From positions 1,308,241 through 1,372,240 of the forward strand of contig NZ_CP110854.1 of assembly GCF_027594745.1 (NCBI RefSeq): DNA of 64,000 nucleotides, given 5' to 3'. Both the position numbers and the translations under genes were made by a program. This DNA comes from Saprospira grandis. Lineage in GTDB: Bacteria; Bacteroidota; Bacteroidia; Chitinophagales; Saprospiraceae. The notes below the pieces were generated by a model that worked only from the letters and a program-made list of their open reading frames with translations, ran no database searches and was not told the DNA's origin. Below, one piece after another: positions 3,712-61,565 of this stretch (the first letter of the stretch is position 1; every line of letters starts with the position of its first letter).

Positions 3712-3875
3712 TTTTGGGGCTTCCCCTGCGGCCTTCGGCCTTGGGTCGGGCTGTGTCGCAGCTCGCAGGCTTGCTCGGCCCTGCAGCGCTTCGCGCTTTG
3801 GTCTGGCCCTTCGGGCCACTGCTATCCATCCCTAAGCCAAGTCGCTTCGCTCCTTTCTACTGCTTGGAGCAGAGG
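3712..3875 (+). repeat. Intergenic repeat module A, forward
   Basis: TTTTGGGGCTTCCCCTGCGGCCTTCGGCC...CTCGCAGGCTTGCTCGGCCCTGC...GGTCTGGCCCTTCGGGCCACTGCTATCCATCCCTAAGCC. Confidence 0.85.
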
Positions 3876-4062: not shown

Positions 4063-7000
4063 TTAATTTTGCTCTAGTTTTTGGAGATAAGCGACCACCT
4101 CCATGGCCATATTGTCTAGTTCGGGCTGCTGGGCCTCTACAGCATTGCGCTCTTCTAGCCAAGCAAAGTATTTCTCCTCAAAAGCCTTCATCTCGTTAAT
4201 GTCCAAATAATAGAAGTTGATATTGATATGCGCCGGAGCATTGATGCTAAAGACCGCATGCATAAGATCCTGGAAATCTTCATTTTGGAAACGAGAGGGC
4301 CAAGAGGGCAAAATGATACTCATATCCAGAGAGTAGAAGTCATGGCGAACGTCTAGATTGGGGCGTTCCTCCAAAAAGAACTGAATATTGCTTTGCAAAG
4401 GAATAGCTCCTGATTTAAAGCTATAGACATAGGCCACAATATCGTCAATTTGTTCTTTGGCTCCTTCTCGAGTATAAAAGATTTCTGGACAGCGGGCAAT
4501 CTTACGATCATACTCCTGCAACACCACTTGATAGCTTTCGCCATCCTCTAGGGTTTCAATAATGAAGTTGTCCTTTTTGCTGGCCAATAAATCTAGTTGG
4601 TTACTGAGGTTGCGTTGCTCTTCAAAAGCACCAAACTCATAGCTTTCTAGCAAAGGACGATCTTGGTCATTAACTAGACGGAAAGCGTGGCGATCTTGGG
4701 CCTGCGGACGAAGCAAAATATGCTCTACCACATGCATTCCCTCCGTTTGGTGGTTAATGCGGGCAAAAAACTTAATCAGCTTTTCCAACTCTACCTGAGC
4801 AGCCAAAATACTGCTATATTCTCTAATCTTCACGCAACCCAAATCGGGATTCCCCTTATAGTAAACACTATAGATTTCCTCCCCATCACGCTCTTCCAAA
4901 AGGGCCAAATAGTTATAGCTAAATATACCATTGGCCAAAAGGTCTTGCATGAGCTCGTCCAAATCCTGCCCTCTAAAGATAAACTTAGAACGGTAGTCTA
5001 GGGTTTCTGGCAAACGCTCAGGAGCGGGACCAGGATCTTCTCCCTTCTCAATTTTCTCCAAACGCTCTAGCTCTGCATCTAAATCTATGTAACCCTCAGG
5101 CAACATAGGCGACTCTAGCTGAATGAGGTCGTGAAAATTATCCACTCCTTCTATATGCGCATCTTCATTAAAGATGCGGACCAAAGATTCATTACCTCCC
5201 TGATTGAGATTAAGCAACAAACAAACCCGACGTTCTAGACCTGCCACCTCCGTTTCTAAAAGCTCCAACATCTTTTTGGTAAACTTGATGTTGGTTTCGG
5301 CAATGGCTTCAGTCAAGGTTTCGGGCAAATCCAGGTCCTTCAGCATTTTTTTCGTCTGCTCCTTGGCCACATCCTCCGGATCACGGTAATTGAGGGCCAT
5401 AGAAAAGGCATCTCTCTGATGCTGACGAAGGCTGTAATTCTCCCGCAATTGCTTGTACTGCTGGCGAATCAAATCTCTTTCTACCTCTTCTTTATATTGC
5501 TTAATGAGCGGCTCAAATAGCTCGGCCCACTCTAGCTCTTGCTCATAAATGACATTATAAAGGGCCATGTAGTTGAATCCACGGCTACGGTTTCGACTAA
5601 TGTCGACATAGTTGCGCAAAAACTCCAATTTGGCATTGACTAGCTCATGCTCTGGGCTCTTGGCCTCCCCTTCCGACATATCATAGCCCACATACTGGCT
5701 TACTTTCAATAAAAAGTCGGTGGTAAAACGCTCGCCAAAACGAGCCAGTAAATGGTCCAGTAAACGGTTGCGGCGCTCCACAAAAGGGTCAAATTCCTCT
5801 ACCGTTTCTTCTAGCTTTTTCAAGCGAGCCTCATTGTCCTTGCCCTTCAAGATGTATTGCATCTCGGGCATGTTCTCTGGCAACTGAGAGAAATAACTAC
5901 GGTCCAAATCGCTATCCAATGAAAAGAATTTCTTCACATTGCCCAATTGGGCCAAGTAGTTGGCCATCAGCTGCTCAAAAAAGGATAAATACCCTCTGAG
6001 CTGCTTAATCATGCCCAAACGCTCCCGTGTAGGACGCACACTATTGGGCAAACCAAATGGACTCAAACCATAGGTGGCCGGAAAAGTATTTTGTACCGAG
6101 TAGTAACGCTTAATATCATCTTCCTTCAATACCGAGGGATAATCCTTCTCATTATAGAGCATCTTCATCTGATAGCCCTTCTTATACCGAGCATAAAGCG
6201 AGTACAACAACTGACTAGCCGTGTTGAGGTCCAAATCATAGTTCAAACTCCCCCGCTGAAAACGGATCGGATAAGCATCGGTTTTCCAACGCGCATCAAT
6301 AGTGTCCATATCCAAAACAGGATAGGTCTTTTCCGCAATCCGAATCACATCGCCCTCTACGGGAAAACCATCTTTTTCTACCCGAAAATAATTGATGCGG
6401 CGAACGCCCTCAATATCCGAGATGATTTCAATAATCTTAGAAATATAAACCTCCCGCTTCATCGCTCTGAGGTCCTCTTTCTTAATGATACCATGCACCG
6501 GCACGGGCCCATCAAAAATCTCTTCAATGGCATAGCCCTCTTCCAAAAGTTCATCAATGGTATGGTACTGAATAGAAGGCGTGAGATGCTCCTCCAACTT
6601 GAAGAGAATTTCAGCCAATACTTCTTCTGCCACCACATCCGAACTAATGTCCAAATCGGTATAAATAATAATCTTATCTACATCCAAGACCTCAATGGCC
6701 TCCAAATCTTCACAAAGGTTGCGATGCGCAGCAAATAAAGCATACACCTCTCGCTTAATCTCTTGCAAACGCTGCGGCTGACGAGCACTATCACTCACCT
6801 GCAACAAAATTCGATACAAGCCCTTAATGCCTTGCAAATGATCCCGCACAGGCTCCACCCAAGCATTCTTCACGCCATTCACCCGATCAATAATCAAGCG
6901 GCGATAGTCCTCTATGGTTACCGGATTTGTCGGCAATATCTCCGAGGCATCATAAAAGGTGTTGTTCAAAGCCTGCCGACGGCCCTTCCCTCTAGCATTC

Positions 7001-7303: not shown

Positions 7304-7486
7304 CTATTTGTCTAGTTGCTGCGGGGGGCTCTCTGCATGCATTTGGGCATTGGCCTGCTCATGAATCTTTCCAATCAACTCATATACTTCATTAAATGGC
7401 CGCTGGCCCAAGGCCTGCAAAATCTTATTGATTTCTTGCATATCTAGCTGCAATAGCAGGGGTTTTTCTTCTTTTGTCTTGCCCAT
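7304..7486 (-). CDS. Small (about 60 aa) hypothetical protein immediately upstream of, and co-oriented with, the 1052-aa gene
   Basis: ORF 7304-7552; internal ATG (MGKTKEEK...) at 7486 preferred because an AT-rich promoter-like sequence lies upstream. Confidence 0.3.
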   Translation of the reverse strand: MGKTKEEKPLLLQLDMQEINKILQALGQRPFNEVYELIGKIHEQANAQMHAESPPQQLDK

Positions 7487-7591
7487 CAGTCTCTTTTTTT
7501 GTAAAAGCCTAGCGAATTTAAGAAAAAAAGCGCTTTGTGCCAATTTATACAAATTTGATTACAGATGTAGGGATTCTTTTCACCTTTTTAT

Positions 7592-7750
7592 TTTTTTGGG
7601 GCTGCCCCGCCTTGCAGGCGGGTCGGGCTGTCTCAGGGCTCGCAGGTCTGCTCGGCCCTTCGCAAAAAAGCTGCGCTTTTTTGCTCGGTCTGGCCCTGCG
7701 GGCCACCCTTGCCCATCCCTCAGCCATTAAAAGCTGGCTGCGCCAGCCCC
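7592..7750 (+). repeat. Intergenic repeat module A, forward
   Basis: TTTTTTTGGGGCTGCCCCGCCTTGCAGGCGGGTCGGGCTGTCTCAGGGCTCGCAGGTCTGCTCGGCCCT...GCCCATCCCTCAGCC plus a GCTGGCTGCGCCAGCC hairpin. Confidence 0.85.
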
Positions 7751-9182: not shown

Positions 9183-9397
9183 GTTAAACTATTATTTTAA
9201 TTGATTAATGGTGTCAGTGATTTATAGACAATAACTAAAGTCAAATCTTGACTCTAGGCAGTCTAGTCCAAAGACAAAATTAAATTTTTTATGCTAATTT
9301 TATAATTCCCCTCTCAGAACTTTCTTCCGATTTGCTTATTTCTCCCCTGCCATTTGGGCCAAAAGCGCCCTTTTCCCCTCTCTTTTGGCCCAGCAGT

Positions 9398-9537
9398 ATT
9401 GGCCCAGCGCTGCGAAGGGGGGGCCGCAAGGCCAGACCCAGGCGCTGAAAGCGCCGCAGGGCCGAGCAGACCTGCGAGCCCCGCAGCATAGCGGCGGCCG
9501 ACCTAGGCGAAGCCTAGCCGGCCGCGGGCCCCAAAAT
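9398..9537 (-). repeat. Intergenic repeat module A, reverse, truncated
   Basis: ...GCCGCAGGGCCGAGCAGACCTGCGAGCCCCGCAG...GGGCCCCAAAATC. Confidence 0.8.
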
Positions 9538-11778: not shown

Positions 11779-11890
11779 AGGCCCTAAAATCAACAGACCG
11801 CTAAATTTCGCCGCTAAGCGAGCCTAGCTAATCTCTAGTAGGGTCAGCCCAGAAAAAAAAGATAGGACCTTATAGATACGCCCGGAGGAG

Positions 11891-12200
11891 TTTGTAAACT
11901 GCAAATTAGCTCTGGCGTCACGCCAGAGGCGTTTTGCAACTGCAGATTAGCTCCGGCGCCACGCCAGAGGCATTTTGCAAATGCAGATTAGCTCTGGCGC
12001 CACGCCAGAGGCGTTTTGCAAATGCAGATTAGCTCTGGCGCCACGCCAGAGGCGTTTTGCAAATGCAGATTAGCTCCGGCGTCACGCCAGAGACGTTTTG
12101 CAAATGCAGATTAGCGCTGAACAGCTGTATAAAGCTGTTTTGCAAATGCAAATAAAGGCTAGCGCCAAGCCAGAGGCATTTGTAAACTGAAGATAGGTCC
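11891..12200. repeat. Tandem array of a 41-bp unit (about 7 copies, degenerate at the ends), each carrying a perfect 8-bp-stem hairpin CTCTGGCGyCACGCCAGAG
   Basis: Units GTTTTGCAAATGCAGATTAGCTCTGGCGCCACGCCAGAGGC repeat head-to-tail with 0-3 mismatches and no intervening unique spacers. Confidence 0.9.
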
Positions 12201-13399: not shown

Positions 13400-13572
13400 T
13401 TTTGGGGCTGCCCCTGCGGCCTTCGGCCTTGGGTCGGGCTGTGTCGCAGCTCGCAGGTCTGCTCGGCCCTGCGGCGGCTTTGCCGCCTGGGTCTGGCCTG
13501 CGGCCACTGCTGTCCATCCCTCAGCCGCGTCGCTACGCTCCTTTGCGGCCCTTCGGGCCTGTAGGAGGCAGA
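13400..13572 (+). repeat. Intergenic repeat module A, forward
   Basis: TTTTGGGGCTGCCCCTGCGGCCTTCGGCC...CTCGCAGGTCTGCTCGGCCCTGCGGCGGCTTTGCCGCC...CATCCCTCAGCCGCGTCGCTACGCTCCTTTGCGGCCCTTCGGGCC. Confidence 0.85.
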
Positions 13573-14267: not shown

Positions 14268-14440
14268 TTGCAGGGCCGAAGGCCCGCAAAGGAGCGTAGC
14301 GACGCGGCTGAGGGATGGACAGCAGTGGCCGAAGGCCAGACCCAGGCAGCTTTGCTGCCGCAGGGCCGAGCGAACAGCGAGCTGCGACACAGCCCGACCC
14401 AAGGCCGCAGGCCGCAGGGGCAGCCCCAACAAAAAATAAA
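14268..14440 (-). repeat. Intergenic repeat module A, reverse
   Basis: GGGCCGAAGGCCCGCAAAGGAGCGTAGCGACGCGGCTGAGGGATGG...GGCAGCCCCAACAAAAAA. Confidence 0.85.
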
Positions 14441-19743: not shown

Positions 19744-19906
19744 TTTTTTTTGGGGCTGCCCCTGCGGCCTGCGGCCTTGGGTCGGGCCATTGCGCAGCTC
19801 GCAGGTCTGCTCGGCCCTGCACAGGCTGCGCCTGTTTGGTCTGCCGCCTGCGGCGGCCCTGCTACAGCCCCTCAGCCGATAGGCTGGGGCTGCGCCCCAG
19901 CCCCAT
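19744..19906 (+). repeat. Intergenic repeat module A, forward
   Basis: TTTTTTTTGGGGCTGCCCCTGCGGCCTGCGGCCTTGGGTCGGGCCATTGCGCAGCTCGCAGGTCTGCTCGGCCCTGC...CCCTCAGCC plus a GGCTGGGGCTGCGCCCCAGCC hairpin. Confidence 0.85.
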
Positions 19907-21055: not shown

Positions 21056-21290
21056 GGCGCAAAGCGCCTGGCCACAACAAGCCCTTTAGGGCGTAGTTCG
21101 ACGACCAAAGGGAGTAACCGATGCGCAGCAGAGGCGCGAAGCGCCTGGCCTAGCGATGCGGCGGGGTGGCCGAAGGCCAGACCAAGCAGGCTTTGCCTGC
21201 GAAGGGCCGAGCAGACCTGCGAGCCCCAAAGTGTAGCGCCGACGAGCGAAGCGAGGCGGAGGCCCCAAAACAGACAGACAAAAAAACCTA
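21056..21290 (-). repeat. Intergenic repeat, long variant (module C + module A), reverse
   Basis: Contains rc of CGGTTACTCCCTTTGGTCGTCGAACTACGCCCTAAAGGGCTTGTTGT (module C) followed by GGCCTAGCGATGCGGCGGGGTGGCC...GGCCGAGCAGACCTGCGAGCCCC...GGAGGCCCCAAAA. Confidence 0.85.
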
Positions 21291-24747: not shown

Positions 24748-24978
24748 TTTTTTTGGGGCCTGCCGCCTTTGGCGGCCGGGCCCTTGCAGGGCTCGCAGGT
24801 CTGCTCGGCCCTGCGTCGCCTTCGGCTCCTTGGTCTGGCCTGCGGCCACCCTTTCAGGCCCCTAGGCCTGCGGCCCTTCGGGCCTGTTTACTGTAGGTTG
24901 AAACCTACAGCAACAACGGTATTGCTTCGCAATGAAGCATAAATGAGGGTTAAAACCCTCATGAAGTTAACTTCTCGG
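24748..24978 (+). repeat. Composite repeat: module A (forward) fused to module B (three consecutive palindromic hairpins)
   Basis: Module A TTTTTTTGGGGCCTGCCGCCTTTGGCGGCC...CTCGCAGGTCTGCTCGGCCCTGC...GGCCCTTCGGGCC followed by CTGTAGGTTGAAACCTACAG / TATTGCTTCGCAATGA / ATGAGGGTTAAAACCCTCAT. Confidence 0.85.
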
Positions 24979-27013: not shown

Positions 27014-27160
27014 CAGAGCGGGCCGAAGGCCCGCCGGCCTAGCGATGTGCAGCAGTGCGGCGCAGCCGCAGACCCAGGCCGTCAGGCCGCAGGGCCGAGC
27101 AGACCTGCGAGCTGCGAAACGTAGCGCCGCAAGGCAAAGCCGCAGCGGAGGCCCCAAAAC
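27014..27160 (-). repeat. Intergenic repeat module A, reverse
   Basis: GGGCCGAAGGCCCGCCGGCCTAGCGATGTGCAGCAGTG...GGCCGAGCAGACCTGCGAGCTGCGAAACGTAGCGCC...GGAGGCCCCAAAA. Confidence 0.85.
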
Positions 27161-28929: not shown

Positions 28930-29072
28930 TTTTGGGGCCTCCTGCCTGCGGCAGGCGCTACGTTCCGCAGCTCGCTATTCGCTCGGCCCTGCGGCAGCAA
29001 AGCTGCCTGGGTCTGGCCCTTCGGGCCACTGCTGCACATCGCTAGGCCAGGCTGGCCTTCGGCCAGCCTTCT
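28930..29072 (+). repeat. Intergenic repeat module A, forward
   Basis: TTTTGGGGCCTCCTGCCTGCGGCAGGCGCTACGTTCCGCAGCTCGCTATTCGCTCGGCCCTGCGGCAGCAAAGCTGCC...GGCCCTTCGGGCCACTGCTGCACATCGCTAGGCCAGGCTGGCCTTCGGCCAGCC. Confidence 0.85.
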
Positions 29073-32555: not shown

Positions 32556-32726
32556 AGAGGACAGGCGGCGAAGCCGCCGCAAAGGAGCGCAGCGACGCGG
32601 CTGAGGGATGGATAGCAGTGGCCCGCAGGGCCAGACCGAAGCGCTTTAGCGCTGAAGGGCCGAGCAGACCTGCGAGCTGCGGCACAGCCCGACCCGCCCG
32701 CAGGGCGGGGCAGCCCCAAAAAAAGA
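32556..32726 (-). repeat. Intergenic repeat module A, reverse, lying between the TPR gene stop and the OMP gene start
   Basis: GGCGGCGAAGCCGCCGCAAAGGAGCGCAGCGACGCGGCTGAGGGATGGATAGCAGTGGCC...GGCCGAGCAGACCTGCGAGCTGCG...GGGCAGCCCCAAAAAAAG. Confidence 0.85.
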
Positions 32727-35881: not shown

Positions 35882-35981
35882 GAAGTTCTATTTAATTTTA
35901 AAGGAGTCTTTCCTAGAGAATCATTCTAATAAGTTCTTAGCTCAAGATACAGTTTTTTAACTGTTTTATGATTTTGGGGCC

Positions 35982-36228
35982 TCCGCTGCGGCTTCGCCTT
36001 GCGGCGGTTACTCCCTTCGGTCGTCGAACTGCGGACTAAAGTCCTTGTTGTCGCAGCTCGCTGCTGTTTTTGTGGGGCCTCCGCCTCCCTTTGGTCGTCG
36101 GCGCTACGTTTCGCAGCTCGCTATTCGCTCGGCCCTGCGCCAGCAAGCCGGCTAGGTCTGGCCTGCGGCCACTGCTGCACATCGCTAGGCCAAGGCGGCT
36201 TTGCCGCCTTCTGCTCCAAGAAAGTAAT
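35982..36228 (+). repeat. Intergenic repeat, long/dimeric variant (module C + module A), forward
   Basis: TTTTGGGGCCTCCGCTGCGGCTTCGCC...GGTTACTCCCTTCGGTCGTCGAACTGCGGACTAAAGTCCTTGTTGTCGCAGCTCGC, then a second TTTTTGTGGGGCCTCCGCCTCCC...CTCGCTATTCGCTCGGCCCTGC...CATCGCTAGGCCAAGGCGGCTTTGCCGCC. Confidence 0.85.
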
Positions 36229-37099: not shown

Positions 37100-37149
37100 A
37101 ACAAATAAGTATTCTAGCGTGGTGGGCAAAAATAAGGGCTGGGTTGGGG

Positions 37150-37274
37150 CGCCAATGGCCTAGCGATGCGAAAGGGTGGCCGTCAGGCCAGACCGAGGCG
37201 CTTTGCGCCGAAGGGCCGAGCAGACCTGCGAGCCCTGTAGCGTAGCGCCTGCCGAAGGCAGGAGGCCCCAAAAA
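37150..37274 (-). repeat. Intergenic repeat module A, reverse
   Basis: GGCCTAGCGATGCGAAAGGGTGGCCGTCAGGCCAGACC...GGCCGAGCAGACCTGCGAGCCCTGTAGCGTAGCGCCTGCCGAAGGCAGGAGGCCCCAAAAA. Confidence 0.85.
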
Positions 37275-41282: not shown

Positions 41283-41335
41283 GATTCTTTTCTTTTAGTC
41301 GCCGCAAAAATAGCCTTTTTCTTTGGAATAATAAT

Positions 41336-41597
41336 TTTTTGGGGCCTCCGCTGCGGCCTGCGGCCTTGCGGCGGTTACTCCCTTTGGTCGTCGAACTGCG
41401 CCCTAAAGGGCTTGTTGTCGTTGCGCAGCTCGCTGCTATTTTGGGGCCTCCGCCTCCCTTCGGTCGTCGGCGCTACGTTTCGCAGCTCGCTGTTCGCTCG
41501 GCCCTGCGGCCTGACGGCCTGGGTCTGCGGCTTCGCCGCACTGCTGCACATCGCTAGGCCAAATGGAAGTCCTGCGCTTCGGCCATCCTTTGGTAAA
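41336..41597 (+). repeat. Intergenic repeat, long/dimeric variant (module C + module A), forward
   Basis: TTTTTTGGGGCCTCCGCTGCGGCCTGCGGCC...GGTTACTCCCTTTGGTCGTCGAACTGCGCCCTAAAGGGCTTGTTGTCG..., then a second TTTTGGGGCCTCCGCCTCCCTTCGG...CTCGCTGTTCGCTCGGCCCTGC...CATCGCTAGGCC. Confidence 0.85.
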
Positions 41598-41683
41598 AAT
41601 TTTAGTTCACTAGTTCACTCAAAAAGGAGTAAATAAACTATATATTACTTAGACATAAGCTAAAAACACAAAATCAAAATAAT

Positions 41684-43093
41684 ATGAAAGCATTAGCTAG
41701 CATCCTTATCCTCTTCATTGGGATACTTAATCCCAGTAAAATGCGAAGCAAAAAGGAAATTATTGCGGCAAAAAACAGTTACCAACAAGAGCAAGCTCTT
41801 TTTAACGAAAGCTATTTGCAGTATAAAAGCCTGAGCGAACTGCTCGCTCAACTCAGCCCTGAAGACCCAGAATATCAATCCTTTAAAGCAGCCCAAACAA
41901 AGGCCAAAAAAGTTTTGGGGCAGTATAAAAAACAGCTGGCCAAGGAAAAAACAGCCTTAGAGACTATTATTGCCAGTTTTCTAGGCGCTCAGCAGGAGGA
42001 TATTCCGAAGGAGCAGTATAGAAAATTATTAGCAGATTTCTTTAAGAATGCATCTGAAGTACTTAAATCAAGAATTGGTAAATCGCCTAAACTAGAGAGT
42101 ACGCCACTGAGTATTTTTCAAGCCCAATTAGCTCAATTCTTCAAACAGATTCCAGGTCCACTCAGTAAACAACTCAATAAGGAGGTTAAAGCGATTCCTA
42201 TTGATACCAATGTTGAAGACTTTCTAGCGGCCTTTTTGGCCATTTTAGAGAAATACAGCCAAGAAGATCAAATCAAGGCGAACTGGTTCAATACCTTTAG
42301 TATCAAAGAAAAGAATTTACTAAAGAAAATTAGCTATCAGCAACTAGAAAGCATTTTGGACCAAGCCCTAGCCAAGGATGACTTTTTGACGAAGGAGGAG
42401 CTGGAAGAGAAAAAGAATATAGTCCTTAAAATACAAGAGGAAAAAAATAGCATCAATAGATGGAAGGATGAGGAATATTTAACATGGAATGACAGCATTA
42501 ACCTTGCAGATTGTTTAGCCCCCAGCTATTTTCCTCAAGTAGTGGCCAATGATTATTATACAGACAAATATGTGAAAGTAGCGACCATCAAAAATTCTTT
42601 ACTTCAGTCTTTGGAACGCTTAGAGCAGGAAGGAAGCCTAGAGGAACTAAAAGCATTTATTTCCTGTGACTTTTTCTCCAACTGCAGAGTACAGTCCCTT
42701 AGAGAAATTTTTGAAGCAGTAGAAGCTAAACGGCTAAAGCAGTTAGATTTACTTCCTTATCTTGGCGAAGAGCCCAGAGGTACAAAAGTTGATATTCAAC
42801 TGTTGAAGTCTCTTTTGAGTGGAATGAATGCAGACCCTAATGATTTCTTGGGGCAACTGCTACTAACGCATATCAAGAACTTAAAATCTGAATCACTTAG
42901 TTTAAGTGAATTAAACGCTGAAGTAGCAGAAAGCCTAATCAATAATCCCGCACTATTAGCTATGATTCCCAAGGAATTCCCTAAAGAAAGTGCGGAAGCT
43001 TGGCTTTCTTTTGATGCCCAATTCAAAAGAGCCGTAGTTCCTGGGGCATTTGGCACTCACAATCATCCTCTTCAAAAAATCATACAAGAATAG
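41684..43093 (+). CDS. Hypothetical protein, low-GC gene (N-terminal hydrophobic anchor, Lys/Glu-rich helical body)
   Basis: 469-aa ORF visibly AT-richer than the neighbouring genes (Lys AAA/AAG-rich), bounded by repeat copies on both sides; no motif recognised. Confidence 0.5.
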   Translation: MKALASILILFIGILNPSKMRSKKEIIAAKNSYQQEQALFNESYLQYKSLSELLAQLSPEDPEYQSFKAAQTKAKKVLGQYKKQLAKEKTALETIIASFLGAQQEDIPKEQYRKLLADFFKNASEVLKSRIGKSPKLESTPLSIFQAQLAQFFKQIPGPLSKQLNKEVKAIPIDTNVEDFLAAFLAILEKYSQEDQIKANWFNTFSIKEKNLLKKISYQQLESILDQALAKDDFLTKEELEEKKNIVLKIQEEKNSINRWKDEEYLTWNDSINLADCLAPSYFPQVVANDYYTDKYVKVATIKNSLLQSLERLEQEGSLEELKAFISCDFFSNCRVQSLREIFEAVEAKRLKQLDLLPYLGEEPRGTKVDIQLLKSLLSGMNADPNDFLGQLLLTHIKNLKSESLSLSELNAEVAESLINNPALLAMIPKEFPKESAEAWLSFDAQFKRAVVPGAFGTHNHPLQKIIQE

Positions 43094-43167
43094 AGAGCGG
43101 AAGATCTAACTCCTTCTAATCAAATAAAAACAGCTAAGCTAAAGCCTCTTGCCAAATAAATTTTTTA

Positions 43168-43208
43168 AGCAAAGCCCCAAACTTCCCGTTTGGGGCTTTG
43201 CTCTTTTG
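43168..43208 (+). terminator. Rho-independent terminator after the low-GC hypothetical gene
   Basis: GCAAAGCCCCAAAC-TTCC-CGTTTGGGGCTTTGC followed by TCTTTT. Confidence 0.65.
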
Positions 43209-43360
43209 GACCTTCGGTCATTCCTACCCCCAAAAGCTGCTGGGCCTGAAAACAGCAGCCCGCCATAAAATTAGAAGCAGGGGCTTTTAAGCTCCTGCGG
43301 CAAGAAAAATGAGGACCAACAAGATTGGCTGCGGCCTTTAGGCTGCAGTAAGCTCATTTA

Positions 43361-43578
43361 TATATCATTGCGAAGCAATACCATTGTTGCTGTAGGTTTC
43401 AACCTAAGTTCAATCCATGAGGGTTTTAACCCTCATCCATATATCATTGCGAAGCAATACCATCTGGCTGTAGGTTTCAACCTAAGTTCAATTCATGAGG
43501 GTTTTAACCCTCATCCATATATCATTGCGAAGCAATACCATCTGGCTGTAGGTTTCAACCTACAGTTAAAAGGGCCGA
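43361..43578 (-). repeat. Tandem array (78 bp x about 2.7) of module B (three palindromic hairpins)
   Basis: Units ATATCATTGCGAAGCAATACCATCTGGCTGTAGGTTTCAACCTAAGTTCAATyCATGAGGGTTTTAACCCTCATCCAT repeated at 43363, 43441 and 43519. Confidence 0.9.
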
Positions 43579-43712
43579 AGGCCCGCGGCTGAGGGATGGA
43601 CAGCAGTGGCCGAAGGCCAGACCCAGCCGCTGAAGGCGGCGCAGGGCCGAGCGAACAGCGAGCTGCGAAACAGCCCGACCCAGCCAAAGGCTGGGGCAGC
43701 CCCAAAAAAAGA
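43579..43712 (-). repeat. Intergenic repeat module A, reverse, directly abutting the module-B array
   Basis: GGGCCGAAGGCCCGCGGCTGAGGGATGGACAGCAGTGGCC...GGCCGAGCGAACAGCGAGCTGCGAAACAGCCCGACCC...GGGGCAGCCCCAAAAAAAG. Confidence 0.85.
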
Positions 43713-48076: not shown

Positions 48077-48133
48077 GTTTTAGTCTAGCCTACTTTCTAC
48101 TAGGACAGCAGCTACTGATGCAGTGGTTGCTGT

Positions 48134-48292
48134 TTTTTTTGGGGCCTGCCGCCTGCGGCGGCCGGGCCCTTGCAGGGCTCGCAGGTCTGCTCGGCCCTTC
48201 AGCCCTTCGGGCTTCGGTCTGGCCTGCGGCCACCCTTTCAGGCCCCTAGGCCAGTCGCTGCGCTCCTTTGCGGCGGCTGCGCCGCCTGTCTA
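48134..48292 (+). repeat. Intergenic repeat module A, forward (left arm of an inverted pair)
   Basis: TTTTTTTGGGGCCTGCCGCCTGCGGCGGCC...CTCGCAGGTCTGCTCGGCCCTTC...GGTCTGGCCTGCGGCCACCCTTTCAGGCCCCTAGGCC... Confidence 0.85.
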
Positions 48293-48342
48293 CCGCAATT
48301 GGACCAATAAAAAAAGCGCTGCTAAACGAAGTTTAGTCAGCG

Positions 48343-48490
48343 CTAGGGCCGCAAGGCCCTAATTGGCTTAGGGATGGATAGCAGTGGCCCGAAGGGCCAG
48401 AGCCAGGCGCTGAAAGCGCCGCAGGGCCGAGCAGACCTGCGAGCTGCGCCACAGCCCGACCCGACCAAAGGGAGGGGAAGCCCCAAACCC
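48343..48490 (-). repeat. Intergenic repeat module A, reverse (right arm of an inverted pair)
   Basis: GGGCCGCAAGGCCC...GGCTTAGGGATGGATAGCAGTGGCCCGAAGGGCCAGAGCC...GGCCGAGCAGACCTGCGAGCTGCG...GGGGAAGCCCCAAA. Confidence 0.85.
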
Positions 48491-52276: not shown

Positions 52277-52428
52277 TTTTTTTGGGGCCTCCCCTCGCCC
52301 TCAAGGGCTCAGGGCGCTACGTTCCGGGGCTCGCTACTCGCTCGGCCCTTCGCCAGCAAGCTGGCTCGGTCTGGCCCTGCGGGCCACCCCTACACATCGC
52401 TAGGCCATGATGGCCTTCGGCCATCCTT
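52277..52428 (+). repeat. Intergenic repeat module A, forward
   Basis: TTTTTTGGGGCCTCCCCTCGCCCTCAAGGGCTCAGGGCGCTACGTTCCGGGGCTCGCTACTCGCTCGGCCCTTC...CATCGCTAGGCCATGATGGCCTTCGGCCATCC. Confidence 0.85.
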
Positions 52429-55173: not shown

Positions 55174-55447
55174 CTGTATTTTTTTTAGCTGTTCTATCTA
55201 ATCCACGGAGCTAATCCGAGATGTCCGTAGACCTCCGTGGCGCATTCTAAGCTCCTCTTTTAATTTTCCTATACCCCTCCTAATTAAAAAATAAAAGGCG
55301 CTTAGGCCCTAAAATAAGCGATCCTTTATTTAGAAGGATAAAAAAAGGCCCCAAACTGTAGTTTGGGGCCTTTCTGAGCCATCAAATTATTGAGCATAAA
55401 AGCTTGAGCAAGGAATTAGGCCAGCCAATAATAGCGAAAGCGGCAAG

Positions 55448-55590
55448 AAGGCCCGAAGGGCCGCAGGCCTAGCGATGTGCAGCAGTGGCCGTCAGGCCAG
55501 ACCCAGCCGCTGAAAGCGGCGCAGGGCCGAGCGAATAGCGAGCTGCGGAACGTAGCGCCGACGAGCGAAGCGAGGCGGAGGCCCAAAAAA
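55448..55590 (-). repeat. Intergenic repeat module A, reverse
   Basis: GGCCCGAAGGGCCGCAGGCCTAGCGATGTGCAGCAGTGGCCGTCAGGCCAGACCC...GGCCGAGCGAATAGCGAGCTGCGGAACGTAGCGCC...GGAGGCCCAAAAAAA. Confidence 0.85.
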
Positions 55591-55627
55591 ATCGCCCTTA
55601 TCCTCGATCATTTTCTTCAGAAGTGCT

Positions 55628-57233: not shown

Positions 57234-57911
57234 ATGAATAGCTCGAAAAATAAGGTCAAGTTCTTGGCCCGCGCCTACTTTTTCCTCCTTCCTTGGAGCC
57301 GTCCTAAGAGATTATGGGCTTTGGCGGCCCTATTGCTCTTAATTTTCCTGAGTTTTCAGTACCTCATTTCTCATTGGCAGGCTGCGCTGGGGCCATTGGC
57401 CTCTGGGGAGGAGATTCAGCTACTGGATGCTCAGTTTGGCCTCAAATCTCAAGAGATTATTCCTCTTTTAGCGCATCTGGGGCCTGTTTATCGGCAAGAT
57501 CAGAGCTACTTATACATGAGTTTAGACTTGATTTATCCCCTTGCTTACGGATTGTTTTTTTCGGCTTGGCTACTTTTTCTGCTCCAAAACTCATTTCCTC
57601 GTTATTTGGGCAGTCTTTACCAGCTCTGTTTTTTCCCTTTTTTGATCTCTATCACTGATCTTTTAGAAAATATATCTTTTATATTGTTGCTTTGGCGCTA
57701 TCCTCGGCTTCCCGCTTGGCTTTGGTCCTTGGCCTCCTTTTTTAATCAGGCAAAATGGATTGGAGTCAACTTGCTGCTCATCTTCCTCCTCTTAGGATAC
57801 ATTGCTCGTTGGATGAACCGAGTAGAAGTGGCCGAATTTAAGGCCATGCAAAAGCGCTTTGGCTCAAAGAACTACAATCATTACACTAAAAAACAAGATC
57901 AAGATGTCTAA
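57234..57911 (+). CDS. Membrane protein, hypothetical (5-6 TM helices)
   Basis: 225-aa hydrophobic ORF; its stop overlaps the start of the carbonic anhydrase gene by 8 nt. Confidence 0.45.
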   Translation: MNSSKNKVKFLARAYFFLLPWSRPKRLWALAALLLLIFLSFQYLISHWQAALGPLASGEEIQLLDAQFGLKSQEIIPLLAHLGPVYRQDQSYLYMSLDLIYPLAYGLFFSAWLLFLLQNSFPRYLGSLYQLCFFPFLISITDLLENISFILLLWRYPRLPAWLWSLASFFNQAKWIGVNLLLIFLLLGYIARWMNRVEVAEFKAMQKRFGSKNYNHYTKKQDQDV

Positions 57912-58494
57912 GAACTTATTATGGGATGCGGCCTTGGCCAAATTGAAAGCAGGAAACGACCGCTTTGTCAATGAACAAGCAGAAGGAAAAAAACAGGCCA
58001 TGGACCGCCGCCAAGAGCTTACTAAAGGGCAGGCGCCTTGGGCGATTATTTTGAGTTGTGCCGACTCTAGAGTGGTGCCCGAACTTGCCTTTGACACTGG
58101 CCTGGGCGAGCTCTTTGTGATTCGGGTAGCGGGCAATATTGCCAATACCTCTACCATTGCGAGTATTGAGTATGCCGTGGCCCACCTAGACGTTAATTTG
58201 ATTGTGGTCATGGGCCACGAAAGCTGCGGAGCAGTTACGGCCGCCATGGCCGAGGGCGATGCAGAAAGCAATAACCTCAAGCATTTGTTGGACTATATTC
58301 AGCCGGCGCTTTCGGCCTGCCCCAACTGCCAAGATGTGAACGAAGTGGTTAAGAAAAATGCCGAACTAACGGCAGAAGCCCTAGCGGCCAACTCCAGCAT
58401 CATCCAAAATGAAATCCAGAATGGGGAGCTCAAGGTCTTTTCGGCCTACTACAACCTCTCTGACGGACATGTAGACTTTTTTGAGGAGGCTTAG
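57904..58494 (+). CDS. Beta-class carbonic anhydrase
   Basis: Zinc-ligand motifs CADSRV and HESCGAV (C..D.R / H..CG) at canonical spacing; about 196 aa from the ATG at 57904. Confidence 0.85.
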   Translation: MSKNLLWDAALAKLKAGNDRFVNEQAEGKKQAMDRRQELTKGQAPWAIILSCADSRVVPELAFDTGLGELFVIRVAGNIANTSTIASIEYAVAHLDVNLIVVMGHESCGAVTAAMAEGDAESNNLKHLLDYIQPALSACPNCQDVNEVVKKNAELTAEALAANSSIIQNEIQNGELKVFSAYYNLSDGHVDFFEEA

Positions 58495-58514: not shown

Positions 58515-58550
58515 AAAAAACGCCAGCTCGATAAAAGCTGGCGTTTTTTT
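58515..58550 (+). terminator. Rho-independent terminator after the carbonic anhydrase gene
   Basis: AAAAAACGCCAGCT-CGATAA-AAGCTGGCGTTTTTTT. Confidence 0.75.
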
Positions 58551-58565
58551 GTGGGCCTATATTAT

Positions 58566-58628
58566 TTTTTTTTGGGGCCCGCGGCCAGCTTTGCTGGCCG
58601 CCGCTATGCTGCGGGGCTCACTGTGCCG
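58566..58628 (+). repeat. 5'-terminal 58-60 bp fragment of repeat module A; direct duplicate of the 5' end of the copy at 59723
   Basis: TTTTTTTTGGGGCCCGCGGCCAGCTTTGCTGGCCGCCGCTATGCTGCGGGGCTCAC matches 59723-59783 exactly, then diverges into AT-rich DNA. Confidence 0.85.
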
Positions 58629-58635
58629 CTAATAT

Positions 58636-59559
58636 CTAACATGGGAATATTATTTTCTTTAACCCTTTCTTTTTGGATATACAAGGGCCAAGAACTAGGG
58701 GGCTACAGTCATAAATCTCTAATCTTTCTAAATTTTCGCATTTTAAATTAGACAAATCTGTACTAGTCGTCCCATCTCTATTAACCGTCCCAAACAAACT
58801 TAAAGACTTCAAATTGAGTTTATCTAGCCTTATTAGAGATAAAGGTATATTATAACAGCTTAACTTTTTCAAAAATCTAAGGTGGTGTATTTCTCTACAA
58901 AAATCCAGATTTATTCTACCACCTCCACCTATAGATAAATCTATTTCTCTTAAATTAGGGAGGCGATCCAAAAAAGGTATACTATCTACATACATATAGC
59001 ATGAAGCTGAAAAACGCTCTAATGTGTCAGGGAGACAGATGTACCAATCTTTCAGAGATGGGATGGAGCGTAGTTCTAATTCTTTGAGTTTGTCTAATTC
59101 GATAATTTCTTCAAAATTTTTCACAGAAGAATTTAGAGACAAGCTTTCTATAGCGCTCTGCTGTATCGCTTTAAAATCTATTCTGCTAAAAGATAAATGT
59201 AGTTCTTTTAGTGTGCCTAGATCTTCTACGAAGCTAATATCTTCGGTTGTTGTCTCCAAACGGGATATATCTAAAGTACCTAATTCTGAAGGAAATGAGG
59301 CCCTACTTAAAGGTATTTCAGTAAAACCTGTAAGTATCAAATACTTTATTTGGGGCAGTCGATCTAATAGATATAGTATAGATTCATTTTCTTCATATAC
59401 GGTAAGTGAAATGGTTTCCAACCAATTCATTTTTGAAATTTTATCTAGTTGTTGCTCTGTTATTAGGTCTAACCACCCGCCTCCAAACTCCTCGCATAAA
59501 AAGAGACTTCCAGATCTTTCAATATTTTCCTCTTCGATTAAACCCTCGATATTGTCCAT
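58636..59559 (-). CDS. Leucine-rich-repeat (LRR) protein encoded on a low-GC cassette
   Basis: Repeated LxxLxLxxN/CxxL units (LKELHLSFSRID, LKELELRSIPSL, LREIDLSIGG, LKSLSLFGTV, LERLEIYDCSPL). Markedly AT-rich codon usage, unlike flanking genes; no signal peptide seen. Confidence 0.6.
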   Translation of the reverse strand: MDNIEGLIEEENIERSGSLFLCEEFGGGWLDLITEQQLDKISKMNWLETISLTVYEENESILYLLDRLPQIKYLILTGFTEIPLSRASFPSELGTLDISRLETTTEDISFVEDLGTLKELHLSFSRIDFKAIQQSAIESLSLNSSVKNFEEIIELDKLKELELRSIPSLKDWYICLPDTLERFSASCYMYVDSIPFLDRLPNLREIDLSIGGGGRINLDFCREIHHLRFLKKLSCYNIPLSLIRLDKLNLKSLSLFGTVNRDGTTSTDLSNLKCENLERLEIYDCSPLVLGPCISKKKGLKKIIFPC

Positions 59560-59722
59560 GCAAATATTTTTAGTTAGATAATCCCATAAAGCTAAAAAAA
59601 TAGTTTTTCATTTTTAATAAAAAAACTTTAAATCACAATTGCTCATGGCAAACAAAATTCTTGTTCTTAAATGAGTCGCGGACAGTAGTGGGAGCAGAAT
59701 TATTAAGCACCTATATTATTGT

Positions 59723-59915
59723 TTTTTGGGGCCCGCGGCCAGCTTTGCTGGCCGCCGCTATGCTGCGGGGCTCACAGGTCTGTTCGGCCCTTCGCTTTTT
59801 CGCTTTGCTCAAAAGCTCGGTCTGGCCTTCGGCCACCCCTCCGCAGCGCTGGGCCGCTCATCGGAGCGGTTTTGTTTGGGCGTTCTGCTTTGGCGGCTTG
59901 GCCTTTCCTTTTAAG
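59723..59915 (+). repeat. Intergenic repeat module A, forward (variant with GGCCAGCTTTGCTGGCC first hairpin)
   Basis: TTTTTTGGGGCCCGCGGCCAGCTTTGCTGGCCGCCGCTATGCTGCGGGGCTCACAGGTCTGTTCGGCCCTTCG...GGTCTGGCCTTCGGCCACCCCTCCGCAGCGCTGGGCCGCTCATCGGAGCGG. Confidence 0.85.
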
Positions 59916-60039
59916 CGGTATTCGTCGCTGCGCTCCTCATTCGCCAATATGTCCCCGCCCACCCAGCCCTCTGCGGGATTCCCTAAGGAATCCCTCAGGG
60001 AGGCGGGCAACAAGCTTGCTGCAGACTTGGTCCAAATTC

Positions 60040-60118
60040 AACGCATGAGGGTTGAAACCCTCATGCCTATAAGATGGCGAAGCAATACCGCTCTTGCTGT
60101 AGGTGTTCAGCTACAGCT
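60040..60118 (-). repeat. Module B (three hairpins, partly degenerate), reverse
   Basis: ATGAGGGTTGAAACCCTCAT / GGCGAAGCAATACC / CTGTAGGTGTTCAGCTACAG. Confidence 0.7.
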
Positions 60119-60275
60119 AAAAAGGGCCGAAGGCCCGCAGGCTGAGGGATGGATAGCAGTGGCCCAAAGGGCCAGACCCAGCCGCCTTTGGCGGCGCAGG
60201 GCCGAGCAGACCTGCGAGCTGCGACACAGCCCGACCCGAAGGCCCAAAGGGCCGAAGGGGCAGCCCCAAAAAAAG
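60119..60275 (-). repeat. Intergenic repeat module A, reverse; with 59723-59915 it forms an inverted pair bracketing module B
   Basis: GGGCCGAAGGCCCGCAGGCTGAGGGATGGATAGCAGTGGCCC...GGCCGAGCAGACCTGCGAGCTGCGACACAGCCCGACCC...GGGGCAGCCCCAAAAAAAG. Confidence 0.85.
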
Positions 60276-60278
60276 AAA

Positions 60279-61565
60279 CTACTCCCCCTCCCAGCGGGCA
60301 AAAAGCAAACAACTATTCACATCTCCAAAGCCAAAACTCGCCTTGGCCATATAGCGCAAATCTGCCGCCTCCATTTGCAGGGGAATACAGGCAGCAGAAA
60401 TCTGGGCCGCAATCTCGGGATGAAGATCTTCGGCATTTTTGCTGGGGTGCAAAAAGCCATGGACCAATTGCAAGACCACCGCCACCGACTCAATAGCTCC
60501 CGCCGCAGATAAACAATGACCAATCAAGGATTTTAGGCTATTAATCTTAGGGAAATCATCGGCAGAGCGGCCCAAAGCCCGCAGCCAAGCCCCAATTTCG
60601 GCAGGATCGCCCATGGTGGCCGTCAGATGGCCCGAAATAGCGTCTAGCTCCTGCGCAGCAATGCCCGCATCGGCCAAAGCCAAGCGAATACAGCGCTCTA
60701 TCGCCTTGATGTTGGGAGCCGTCATGCTGCCCCCCTGACGCTGACCGCCCGCATTTAAGTGCCCCCCTTTTAGCTCGGCATAAATGTGCGCGCCACGGGC
60801 TTGAGCCGAGGCCAAACTCTCTAAAACCAATGCGCCAGCGCCGCTGCCCGGCACAAAACCCGCCGCCTGCTCGCTCATTGGGCGAGAAGCCTGCTCTGGG
60901 CGGTCATTAAACTTGCGGCAAAGCACCCGCATCGAATCAAAACCCGCCCAAATATATGGACCAGAACTGTTGCAGCTACCGACCAGCATCCGCTCCGCTC
61001 GTCCCGACCGAATACGATCATAGCCCATTAATATGGCCTCACTGCCCGTGCTGCAAGCCGCCGAATTAGAACTCAACTGATTGCCAAGGCCCAAAAAACC
61101 GCCCAAATAAGCGCTGATGCTGCTCTCCATCGTCTGTTGAATCAAAGAAGAGCCAATGCGGCGGACCTTGCCCGCATCCACCTTATAAATTCCCTCTCGA
61201 ACCACCTCAATACTAGACTGCCCGCCGCCAAAAATGCAGCCCGCCTCCCAATCGGGTTCCTCTTCCTTTTCAGAAATTGGCAAGGCGGCATCCTGCCAAG
61301 CCTCTAGGCCCGCCAAACAGCCATACAAAAGGCCAGAGCCCTGAATATATCGCCTTTGTAAGGGCGTCAAGAAGCTATTAATGTACTCTTCGGTCAGCGG
61401 AGGGCTGCCTGCGACTCGACAAGCAAACTGTAGCTCCTCCAAATCTGGACGATAGCTAATTCCCGACTTTCCCGACTGCAAAGCGGCCAAAAAATCGGCC
61501 TTTCCCAAGGCGTTGGGAGCCACCACCCCCAAACCCGTAATCACGACTCTATTTTCCTGCATCAT
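60279..61565 (-). CDS. Beta-ketoacyl-ACP synthase (KAS I/II-type, Cys-His-His elongating ketosynthase)
   Basis: Active-site SAACSTG (Cys), GHLTATMGDPAE and SLIGHCLSAAG (His/His); 428 aa. Confidence 0.85.
   Translation of the reverse strand: MMQENRVVITGLGVVAPNALGKADFLAALQSGKSGISYRPDLEELQFACRVAGSPPLTEEYINSFLTPLQRRYIQGSGLLYGCLAGLEAWQDAALPISEKEEEPDWEAGCIFGGGQSSIEVVREGIYKVDAGKVRRIGSSLIQQTMESSISAYLGGFLGLGNQLSSNSAACSTGSEAILMGYDRIRSGRAERMLVGSCNSSGPYIWAGFDSMRVLCRKFNDRPEQASRPMSEQAAGFVPGSGAGALVLESLASAQARGAHIYAELKGGHLNAGGQRQGGSMTAPNIKAIERCIRLALADAGIAAQELDAISGHLTATMGDPAEIGAWLRALGRSADDFPKINSLKSLIGHCLSAAGAIESVAVVLQLVHGFLHPSKNAEDLHPEIAAQISAACIPLQMEAADLRYMAKASFGFGDVNSCLLFARWEGE

Follow-up and report, generated by a model that had tools for sequence, protein, structure and literature searches.

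Integron cassettes, including those of the Vibrio VCR arrays, are units of about 1 kb with a single open reading frame (ORF), often an orphan of atypical GC content, and an imperfect palindrome of 57-141 bp behind it; in chromosomal cassette arrays the cassettes are bounded by near-identical repeats, and integron recombination does not duplicate the whole site. IS1397, IS621 and other insertion sequences (IS) of the IS110 family target REP/BIME hairpins by means of their own transposase and produce duplications of 0-4 bp. In Neisseria, strain-specific blocks of one to three genes between conserved genes, termed minimal mobile elements, are exchanged by recombination and carry no mobility genes (Saunders & Snyder 2002, as cited in PMC1797815). 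Abundant intergenic repeats of Neisseria, NIME/dRS3, flank variable genes and were proposed as recombination substrates (Bentley et al. 2007, PMC1797815), and dRS3 repeats are also sites of filamentous prophage integration (PMC1797815). Here we describe a locus within 64 kb of DNA from Saprospira grandis WH-T (the window), where an AT-rich cassette of 1,088 bp, carrying one gene for a leucine-rich-repeat (LRR) protein, is inserted in a copy of an abundant structured intergenic repeat, the arm, and is bounded by a 66-bp direct repeat.

The cassette (58622..59709, no strand assigned) was compared with the corresponding loci of S. grandis Lewin (genome CP002831; locus L002) and DSM 2844 (L004), and with an outgroup (L086), a 5.5-kb contig from a metagenome scan for which the carbonic anhydrase terminator was the query pattern. 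The flanks of the insertion site are 96% identical to Lewin and 94% to DSM 2844, and the outgroup is 82-83% identical to all three strains, with synteny kept. Lewin contains the same insertion as WH-T. DSM 2844 has the order carbonic anhydrase, terminator, repeat, beta-ketoacyl synthase (KAS), with a single 66-mer and no cassette (empty site L004:8700-8762), and the outgroup site is likewise uninterrupted, with a single 66-mer at about 5055-5125. Homology to both of these loci stops exactly at the cassette coordinates 58622 and 59709. Since the site is empty in the outgroup and in DSM 2844, absence is ancestral and the cassette was gained, and the alignments place this gain on the branch to WH-T and Lewin. 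The grouping of these two strains was the best supported by the rooted informative sites, which split 44/32/12, indicating that the strains recombine in the region.

The cassette is also foreign in composition. Its GC content is 33.3% compared with 47.6% for the whole window, the minimum of all 1,087-bp windows in the 64 kb (z = -4.4), and the GC content at third codon positions (GC3) of its ORF is 0.28, compared with 0.51 +/- 0.045 in 38 other ORFs, from which it also shows the largest distance in codon usage. The initial annotation, which was made from the window alone, had read the segment as an AT-rich insertion at a repeat element with a gene of unusual codon usage, and the GC calculation, the codon-usage distances and the comparison with cassette-free relatives agree with it on all of these points.

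The direct repeat was characterized with reference to the arm, a GC-rich intergenic unit of about 145 nt, of which nhmmer with an arm hidden Markov model found 22 full copies in the window, on both strands and about one per 2.9 kb. The left copy of the direct repeat (58556..58621, + strand) and the right copy (59710..59775, + strand) are identical at 65 of 66 positions, the sole mismatch being T/G at 58567/59721. In order, the 66-mer consists of 11 bp of unique flank, CCTATATTATT, a T-run and the first 48 nt of the arm. The 11 bp lie outside the repeat element and are present in both copies of the direct repeat; at other copies of the same arm subfamily (L002:3177, L004:15494 and those of two plasmids) the flanks differ and CCTATATTATT is absent, indicating that resident DNA of this locus was duplicated in place. 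Typical arms are only 80-90% identical to each other, which excludes chance for a 65/66 match, and when about 147 kb of S. grandis DNA was aligned to itself by BLAST, no other near-identical short-range direct repeat involved an arm. A duplication of 58 bp, at 58566-58623 and from 59723, had been reported in the initial annotation; the duplication is real, but its extent was underestimated, because it starts 10 bp further to the left and spans 66 bp.

It may be asked whether any event took place at all, as the left copy could be an independent truncated repeat or the whole structure an assembly artefact. The high abundance of arms makes a stray fragment conceivable. The identical segment, however, takes in the 11 non-repeat bases, by which an independent truncated copy is ruled out in the alignment, and the same structure is found in the complete genomes of WH-T and Lewin, which were assembled independently; short-read unitigs of two runs agree with it. 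We regard the probability of this explanation as negligible.

The left copy is structurally incomplete. It is cut after GCTCAC, the nhmmer match covers positions 1-54 of the arm model only, and the repeat ends at column 73 of alignment A3, short of the 3′ strands that complete helices 1, 3, 4 and 5. Lacking the 3′ partners of four helices, it is a dead fragment, and the right copy runs on into a complete arm. The breakpoint (column 73/74 of A3) falls within the arm's most conserved mini-hairpin, in its loop. At the left junction, CTCAC-TGT|GCCGC, the TGT (58622-58624) matches the ancestral arm sequence in the outgroup, where, as in the paralogous DSM 2844 arm at a second locus, CTCAC-TGTTCG is found; the empty site of DSM 2844 reads CTCAC-TCTTCG. 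Since the ancestral TGT is retained, the duplication probably measured 69 bp at first. In the right copy the sequence continues as CTCAC-AGGYCTG, the other common allele of this loop, and the presence of AGGYCTG instead of the ancestral TGTTCG implies later conversion from another arm. Exchange of modules between arms was also observed elsewhere in the same composite element.

Besides the LRR gene, the cassette consists of 150 bp of upstream and 14 bp of downstream DNA. The AT-rich upstream region (59560..59709, - strand), judging from its sequence, presumably serves as promoter or leader; a scan that does not cover Bacteroidota promoters detected no sigma-70-type site in it. The cassette has neither terminal inverted repeats nor internal repeats, and encodes no recombinase or transposase, the LRR ORF being the only one present. 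Among the genes within +/-10 kb in Lewin there was no Pfam match to a recombinase or integrase, and the nearest mobility gene encodes an IS256-type transposase, 9 kb off. The boundaries, CTCAC|TGTGCC and TTAAGCA|CCTATA, lack the GTT core of integron sites, neither IntI nor a cassette array was found within +/-10 kb in Lewin, where the cassette stands single, and no second copy of the cassette was present in any database searched.

Several identities of the cassette were tried and rejected. A transposon, IS or miniature inverted-repeat transposable element does not fit a segment that has no terminal inverted repeats, a duplication of 66 bp where such elements make short ones (2-15 bp), and neither a transposase nor a related autonomous copy. 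Against a phage origin, no IMG/VR match was obtained with the gene or with the cores of the 66-mer and the arm, and tblastn against phages was blank; against a plasmid origin, the plasmid matches span the arm part only. The right end of the cassette (GGACAGTAGTGGG) resembles the 3′ part of an arm by eye, but nhmmer gave nothing in 58623-59709 even at E = 10.

The explanation we favour, to which we assign a probability of roughly 45%, is a single illegitimate insertion by break repair, followed by spread through homologous recombination. A one-off illegitimate insertion is the simplest reading because the duplication is in place and locus-specific, mobility functions are lacking, and the event is unique in the sample. 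The comparisons above show the insertion, its polarity and its boundaries, and the duplication of 66-69 bp of resident DNA in place; we infer the enzymology and the later spread as follows. The foreign AT-rich segment of about 1.09 kb would have entered once, in the lineage to WH-T and Lewin, at the resident arm just downstream of the carbonic anhydrase terminator. The cause may have been break repair or annealing at microhomologies in a hairpin-rich and probably fragile repeat, with no dedicated cassette system involved. The filled allele would then have become a presence/absence polymorphism moving between strains via homologous recombination, and could be lost again through recombination between the two 66-bp copies. 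Ectopic single-strand annealing at microhomologies in replication is a documented illegitimate integration route in bacteria (bioRxiv 10.1101/2023.11.22.568220), though for short patches only.

Four points weigh against this explanation. The breakpoint falls exactly in the most conserved hairpin loop and could mark the recognition site of an enzyme; the AGGYCTG of the right copy demands an extra gene-conversion step; and the fraction of the genome sampled is small, so the uniqueness of the event is provisional. In addition, we know of no documented illegitimate insertion of kilobase size in bacteria with a clean flanking duplication of 66-69 bp.

The later history of the cassette was deduced from the divergence of WH-T and Lewin. 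Synonymous divergence (dS) is 0.029 in the LRR gene and 0.06-0.12 in five flanking genes (pooled 0.087), a significant difference by Fisher's test (p = 0.004-0.011), and 23 of the 1,088 positions of the whole cassette differ. That the cassette is less diverged than flanking neutral sites fits a spread after the strains had split; with such small counts, a more recent ancestor of the cassette than of its surroundings is suggested by these sequences. That a long tract, flanks included, had been transferred recently was considered and rejected, since the differences from Lewin reach both junctions (58532, 58555, 58566-7; 59695, 59702, 59721), and no low-divergence tract was found in the cassette flanks between the two strains. 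The ratio of nonsynonymous to synonymous divergence (dN/dS) is 0.66 for the LRR gene and 0.02-0.14 for the five flanking genes, so that the former appears, on this comparison, to be under weak constraint. To the left of the site, a stretch of 200 bp (57400-57599) in a gene for a 225-aa membrane protein shows 37 differences from Lewin compared with 1-9 in neighbouring bins; this hyper-divergent patch is probably an imported recombination tract.

These data also bear on the possibility that the LRR gene and both copies of the repeat are ancestral, and that recombination between the 66-bp copies removed the cassette separately in DSM 2844 and in the outgroup. Deletion between such direct repeats is easy, and leaves precisely the single-copy site that is seen. 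Two independent precise losses would nevertheless be required in place of one gain, and the carrier cassettes differ 3-4 times less than the dS of their flanks. The GC3 of 0.28 against 0.51 and the lack of a homolog of the protein in other Saprospiraceae or elsewhere also count against it, and the origin of the duplication is left unexplained. We consider ancestral presence very unlikely.

The gene itself (58636..59559, - strand, ATG start) is an LRR-only ORFan encoding 307 aa and the sole substantial ORF of the cassette. It is intact in Lewin, and a search of 5.8 billion proteins yielded no close homolog other than this ortholog, which is 96% identical. The translation contains at least eight LxxLxL units with a period of about 22-25 residues, such as LKELHLSFS, IESLSLNSS, LKELELRSI, LREIDLSIG, LKKLSCYNI, LKSLSLFGT and LERLEIYDC. 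Five Pfam LRR families gave matches, all below the gathering threshold (LRR_4, 25.2 versus 27; LRR_14, 23.5 versus 40). Using phmmer, 14 remote matches were obtained (E from 1e-5 to 8e-4), and in each of the six examined further, LRR_4, LRR_8 or LRR_14 scores above threshold. A single-sequence AF2 model, of moderate confidence (pLDDT 70.5, pTM 0.72), is a solenoid, and the top 50 PDB matches of this model in Foldseek are all LRR proteins, including internalins, Roco LRR and LIC12759 (best E = 7e-5, TM 0.47-0.52). Repeat units, remote relatives and model thus agree, with Pfam just below threshold, and establish a modelled LRR fold for the 307-aa protein, as the initial annotation had called it.

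The same annotation considered a role in host interaction or defence, and neither found support. The N-terminus, MDNIEGLIEEENIERSG, is acidic and without a hydrophobic segment, as read from the translation; no export signal is visible in the sequence, and there is no C-terminal domain of the Por_Secre_tail type that is used by the type IX secretion system (T9SS). The check for effector domains at the termini returned the LRR fold only: Pfam found no second domain, NEL was absent, and XopL scored 17.8 against a cut-off of 500. PADLOC and PHROG gave no match for the protein, and the gene lies next to carbonic anhydrase and fatty-acid or polyketide-type genes, not in a neighbourhood of defence genes. 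We predict a cytoplasmic solenoid.

It had further been proposed that module A, as the repeat was called, acts as a hotspot of integration or as an attachment site at which small gene cassettes enter. In a sample of about 60 arms in about 170 kb of Saprospira DNA, comprising the 22 of the window and about 38 others (from further S. grandis loci, the outgroup contig and two Saprospira plasmids), the left copy described here is the only truncated and duplicated arm, and no second split arm was found. Three candidates for further events were rejected: what look like partial arms at 41335-41438 and 35972-36066 represent an extra 5′ module that recurs in one subfamily, and they are no duplicates of their neighbours; the "5′-truncated" arm of L084 is a full arm with the same extra module, on a scaffold that contains N gaps; and a length difference of 414 bp between Lewin and WH-T at 55203-55241 is copy-number variation of a 41-bp tandem array. 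The lack of a recombinase, terminal inverted repeats and an integron core site in the cassette likewise counts against the proposal, and the 11 bp of locus-specific flank within the duplication fit target duplication in place better than a portable attachment site. The event is described here as a strain-specific islet at an intergenic repeat, which looks one-off and gives no proof of a general docking site.

A Campbell-type integration is the main rival explanation, a serious one although we think it less likely than illegitimate insertion. Here a circle of 1,154 bp with an attP of 66-69 bp would have been integrated at the 5′ domain of the arm, serving as attB, by a recombinase encoded elsewhere on the chromosome or on a plasmid, and would be excisable; the direct repeats would be attL and attR, and the circle junction would read …TTAAGCA-66mer-TGTGCCGC…, that is …GAATTATTAAGCA-[66-mer]-TGTGCCGCTAAT…. 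Direct repeats around an insert, together with an intact single-copy site in related strains, are the classic pattern of this process, and the structured 66-mer lies within 14 bp of the ORF end, as attC does behind integron cassettes. The coalescence of the cassette, younger than that of its flanks, is compatible with cassette-specific mobility, and both the position of the breakpoint in a conserved hairpin loop and the sequence of the arm 5′ domain would suit a constrained site. The 48-nt domain, GGGGCCCGC...GGGGCTCAC, shows 100% identity among the three strains, a second locus and the outgroup (flanks 82-84% identical), an invariance that is significant given the 16-18% divergence of the flanks (p about 2e-4). 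Its sites are 59738-59775 and 58584-58621 in the window, about 5078-5125 in L086, L002:3190-3236 and L004:15440-15489.

A candidate for the helper recombinase was present on one of the Saprospira plasmids, which are 53-55 kb in size. The Lewin plasmid (L087, NC_016936.1) encodes a 221-aa serine recombinase (WP_050981210.1; Pfam Resolvase, E = 4e-29) at L087:5205-5870 (NC_016936.1 49420-50085), about 130 bp from an arm (L087:6010-6144) whose 5′ domain is near-identical to that of the insertion site. The plasmid copy of the 48-nt domain carries a compensatory change, GCGG paired with CCGC. The CCB-QB6 plasmid (L088), however, has the same arm and no adjoining recombinase, and with one arm per about 3 kb the adjacency in Lewin may be due to chance. 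The absence of a recombinase from the cassette and from +/-10 kb in Lewin is a further difficulty for the Campbell reading, as are the 11 bp found only at this locus within the segment of identity, which a portable attP must have matched beforehand. No other split or duplicated arm was seen among the about 60, and neither the gene nor the att-like sequence turned up in viral contigs or phage records.

A nuclease or integrase specific to the arm could have made staggered cuts around its first domain, which gap filling would then have duplicated; by analogy, the CRISPR repeat is duplicated in spacer integration, and casposons duplicate their target. The duplicated DNA is indeed the resident target with its unique flank included, the unit is one complete structural module, with the T-run, an entire hairpin 2 and, of helices 1, 3, 4 and 5, the 5′ strands, and it ends in a conserved hairpin loop. 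The left boundary, on the other hand, is located 11 bp beyond the arm in unconserved DNA, there is a single instance, and no such enzyme was found here; nor is one known to us. Duplications are 14-15 bp for casposons and 2-14 bp for IS, and to our knowledge no bacterial element yields 66-69 bp. We consider this mechanism unlikely.

A second AT-rich island lies in the window at 41567-43366, between two inverted arms. It contains a gene for a protein of 469 aa (41684..43093, + strand, 38.5% GC), a member of a multi-copy, Saprospira-specific family. At the corresponding place in Lewin (L085:9912-12310) there is instead a distant paralog of 750 aa, and homology stops at the inner ends of the arms. 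The arm might be a new structured recombinogenic element whose 5′ domain is cut by a dedicated enzyme, with the cassette as a captured cargo whose integration doubled precisely this domain, and with arm-bounded, strain-variable AT-rich genes such as that of this island as further products, an idea to which we give about as little weight as to the arm-specific enzyme itself. Illegitimate insertion stays the reading we prefer for the LRR cassette.

The right copy of the direct repeat opens a complete arm (59722..59866, + strand; nhmmer E = 9e-22, model positions 1-129), a member of A3 and of the subfamily that starts with GGGGCCCGC, and the 5′ domain of this arm is the target that was duplicated. 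Its inverted partner (60123..60274, - strand; E = 5e-30) and a centre of 256 bp complete a composite of 553 bp, which ends 4 bp from the KAS stop codon; a paralogous composite at L002:3177-3713 is 87% identical. All told, arms make up about 5% of the window. On the + strand they are located at 3712-3857, 7591-7734, 13400-13545, 19744-19893, 24748-24887, 28930-29065, 36067-36211, 41439-41580, 48133-48273, 52277-52424 and 59722-59866, and on the - strand at 2299-2433, 9383-9536, 14287-14429, 21128-21270, 27016-27159, 32581-32724, 37137-37274, 43568-43710, 48348-48487, 55448-55591 and 60123-60274. None was found in six loci from other Saprospiraceae, and the family appears restricted to Saprospira.

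The RNAalifold consensus of the 22 arms has 23 pairs in 8 helices. Alignment cells at these positions are paired in 96.8% of cases (shuffled alignments give 81%, slid partners 30-63%), and double compensatory changes were observed at 13 pairs, including those of the 5′ GGGGCYN with the 3′ NRGCC about 140 nt away. Rfam has no family for the arm or the duplicated segment, either at gathering thresholds or at E = 5 or below, and no description of Saprospira repeats was found in the literature. REP, BIME and REPIN elements, which are single imperfect palindromes of 20-60 nt with a GTAG or CGTC head and a cognate RAYT gene flanked by the repeats, do not accommodate the arm, with its length of about 145 nt, 8 helices, long-range 5′-3′ pairing and a start of T-run-GGGGC.

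Frequently, two arms in inverted orientation enclose a variable centre and make up a composite of 350-550 bp that has the ends TTTTGGGGC...GCCCCAAAA, as at 59722-60274, 48133-48487, L087:6010-6548 and L088:6001-6433; the centres of the plasmid composites are AT-rich. An extra module of about 100 nt (…TTACTCCCTTTGGTCGTCGAACTGCG…CTTGTTGTCG…) precedes or interrupts the 5′ domain of some arms (35972-36066, 41335-41438 and L084:~7480-7560). Tandem units of 78 bp with two hairpins (CATGAGGGTTTTAACCCTCATC, CTGTAGGTTTCAACCTA) adjoin the inner end of minus-strand arms at 43353-43567 and 60017-60113, and a single related unit of this type lies in the centre of the 59722-60274 composite. Other tandem units, of 41 bp and each with a GC-rich palindrome, were found at 11841-12194 and at 55203-55241; the latter array, at L002:14321-14810 in Lewin, has about 10 units there and 1 in WH-T, and DSM 2844 is without a further 189 bp at this place.

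The genes on either side of the site are conserved. The left neighbour encodes a beta-carbonic anhydrase (57904..58494, + strand; Pfam Pro_CA, E = 3.7e-41), and a 196-aa ortholog is equally placed in Lewin, DSM 2844 and the outgroup. It is followed by a bidirectional intrinsic terminator hairpin, AAAAAACGCCAGCT...AGCTGGCGTTTTTT (58515..58549, no strand assigned), a perfect inverted repeat of 14 bp flanked by an A-run and a T-run, at which Rfam gave terminator-type matches only; the hairpin terminates the carbonic anhydrase gene and, on the other strand, probably the LRR gene as well. The right neighbour is the KAS gene (60279..61565, - strand; N- and C-terminal ketoacyl-synt domains in Pfam), syntenic in Lewin and DSM 2844. 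Near the start of the window, two tRNA genes of identical sequence lie in tandem, 99 bp apart (1229-1302 and 1328-1401).

With an empty site, a filled site, an outgroup and exact junctions, the locus is a clean and polarised case of the entry of an orphan gene into a bacterial chromosome, and the landing point is a defined position within an abundant structured repeat. If more such events exist in the genome, the arm would offer this predatory marine bacteroidote a platform on which genes are gained by docking or recombination, and the domain-sized duplication of 66-69 bp would point to an unfamiliar integration chemistry; if the event is unique, it is an ordinary strain-specific islet, of value mainly as a marker. 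The arm family, with its covariation over many helices and a 48-nt domain frozen across 18% divergence, is possibly the more important object and deserves a study of its own.

Among the known systems, the minimal mobile elements of Neisseria are resembled in the carbonic anhydrase and KAS flanks, kept in four genomes, and in the lack of mobility genes; the content of the site is the LRR cassette or nothing, with no alternative cassette. In this respect island 2 (41567-43366), with its alternative cargo in Lewin, is the closer match. Unlike the Neisseria cases, the LRR cassette is inserted inside one repeat copy and bounded by a duplication, and natural transformation is only a candidate in Saprospira. 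The arm, a multi-helix unit of about 145 nt, also differs from the 20-bp dRS3, and a repeat-specific recombinase is hypothetical in Saprospira.

Islands at tRNA and tmRNA genes, which are integrated by tyrosine or serine recombinases, share with this locus direct repeats of tens of bp around atypical DNA, an intact empty site, and a structured, highly conserved target; they differ in that there is no integrase in or near the cassette, which has 1.1 kb and one gene, an interspersed repeat as its target and locus-specific flank in the segment of identity. Integron cassettes have the single orphan ORF, the atypical GC content and the structured repeat close behind in common with it, but not the 150 bp of upstream DNA, and GTTRRRY/RYYYAAC core sites, a nearby IntI and an array are missing here. 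As with the IS that target REP/BIME, mobile DNA has landed within an extragenic repeat that is structured, in the loop of a hairpin or close to it, although the cassette has no transposase and is flanked by 66-69 bp. [quoted passage not shown]

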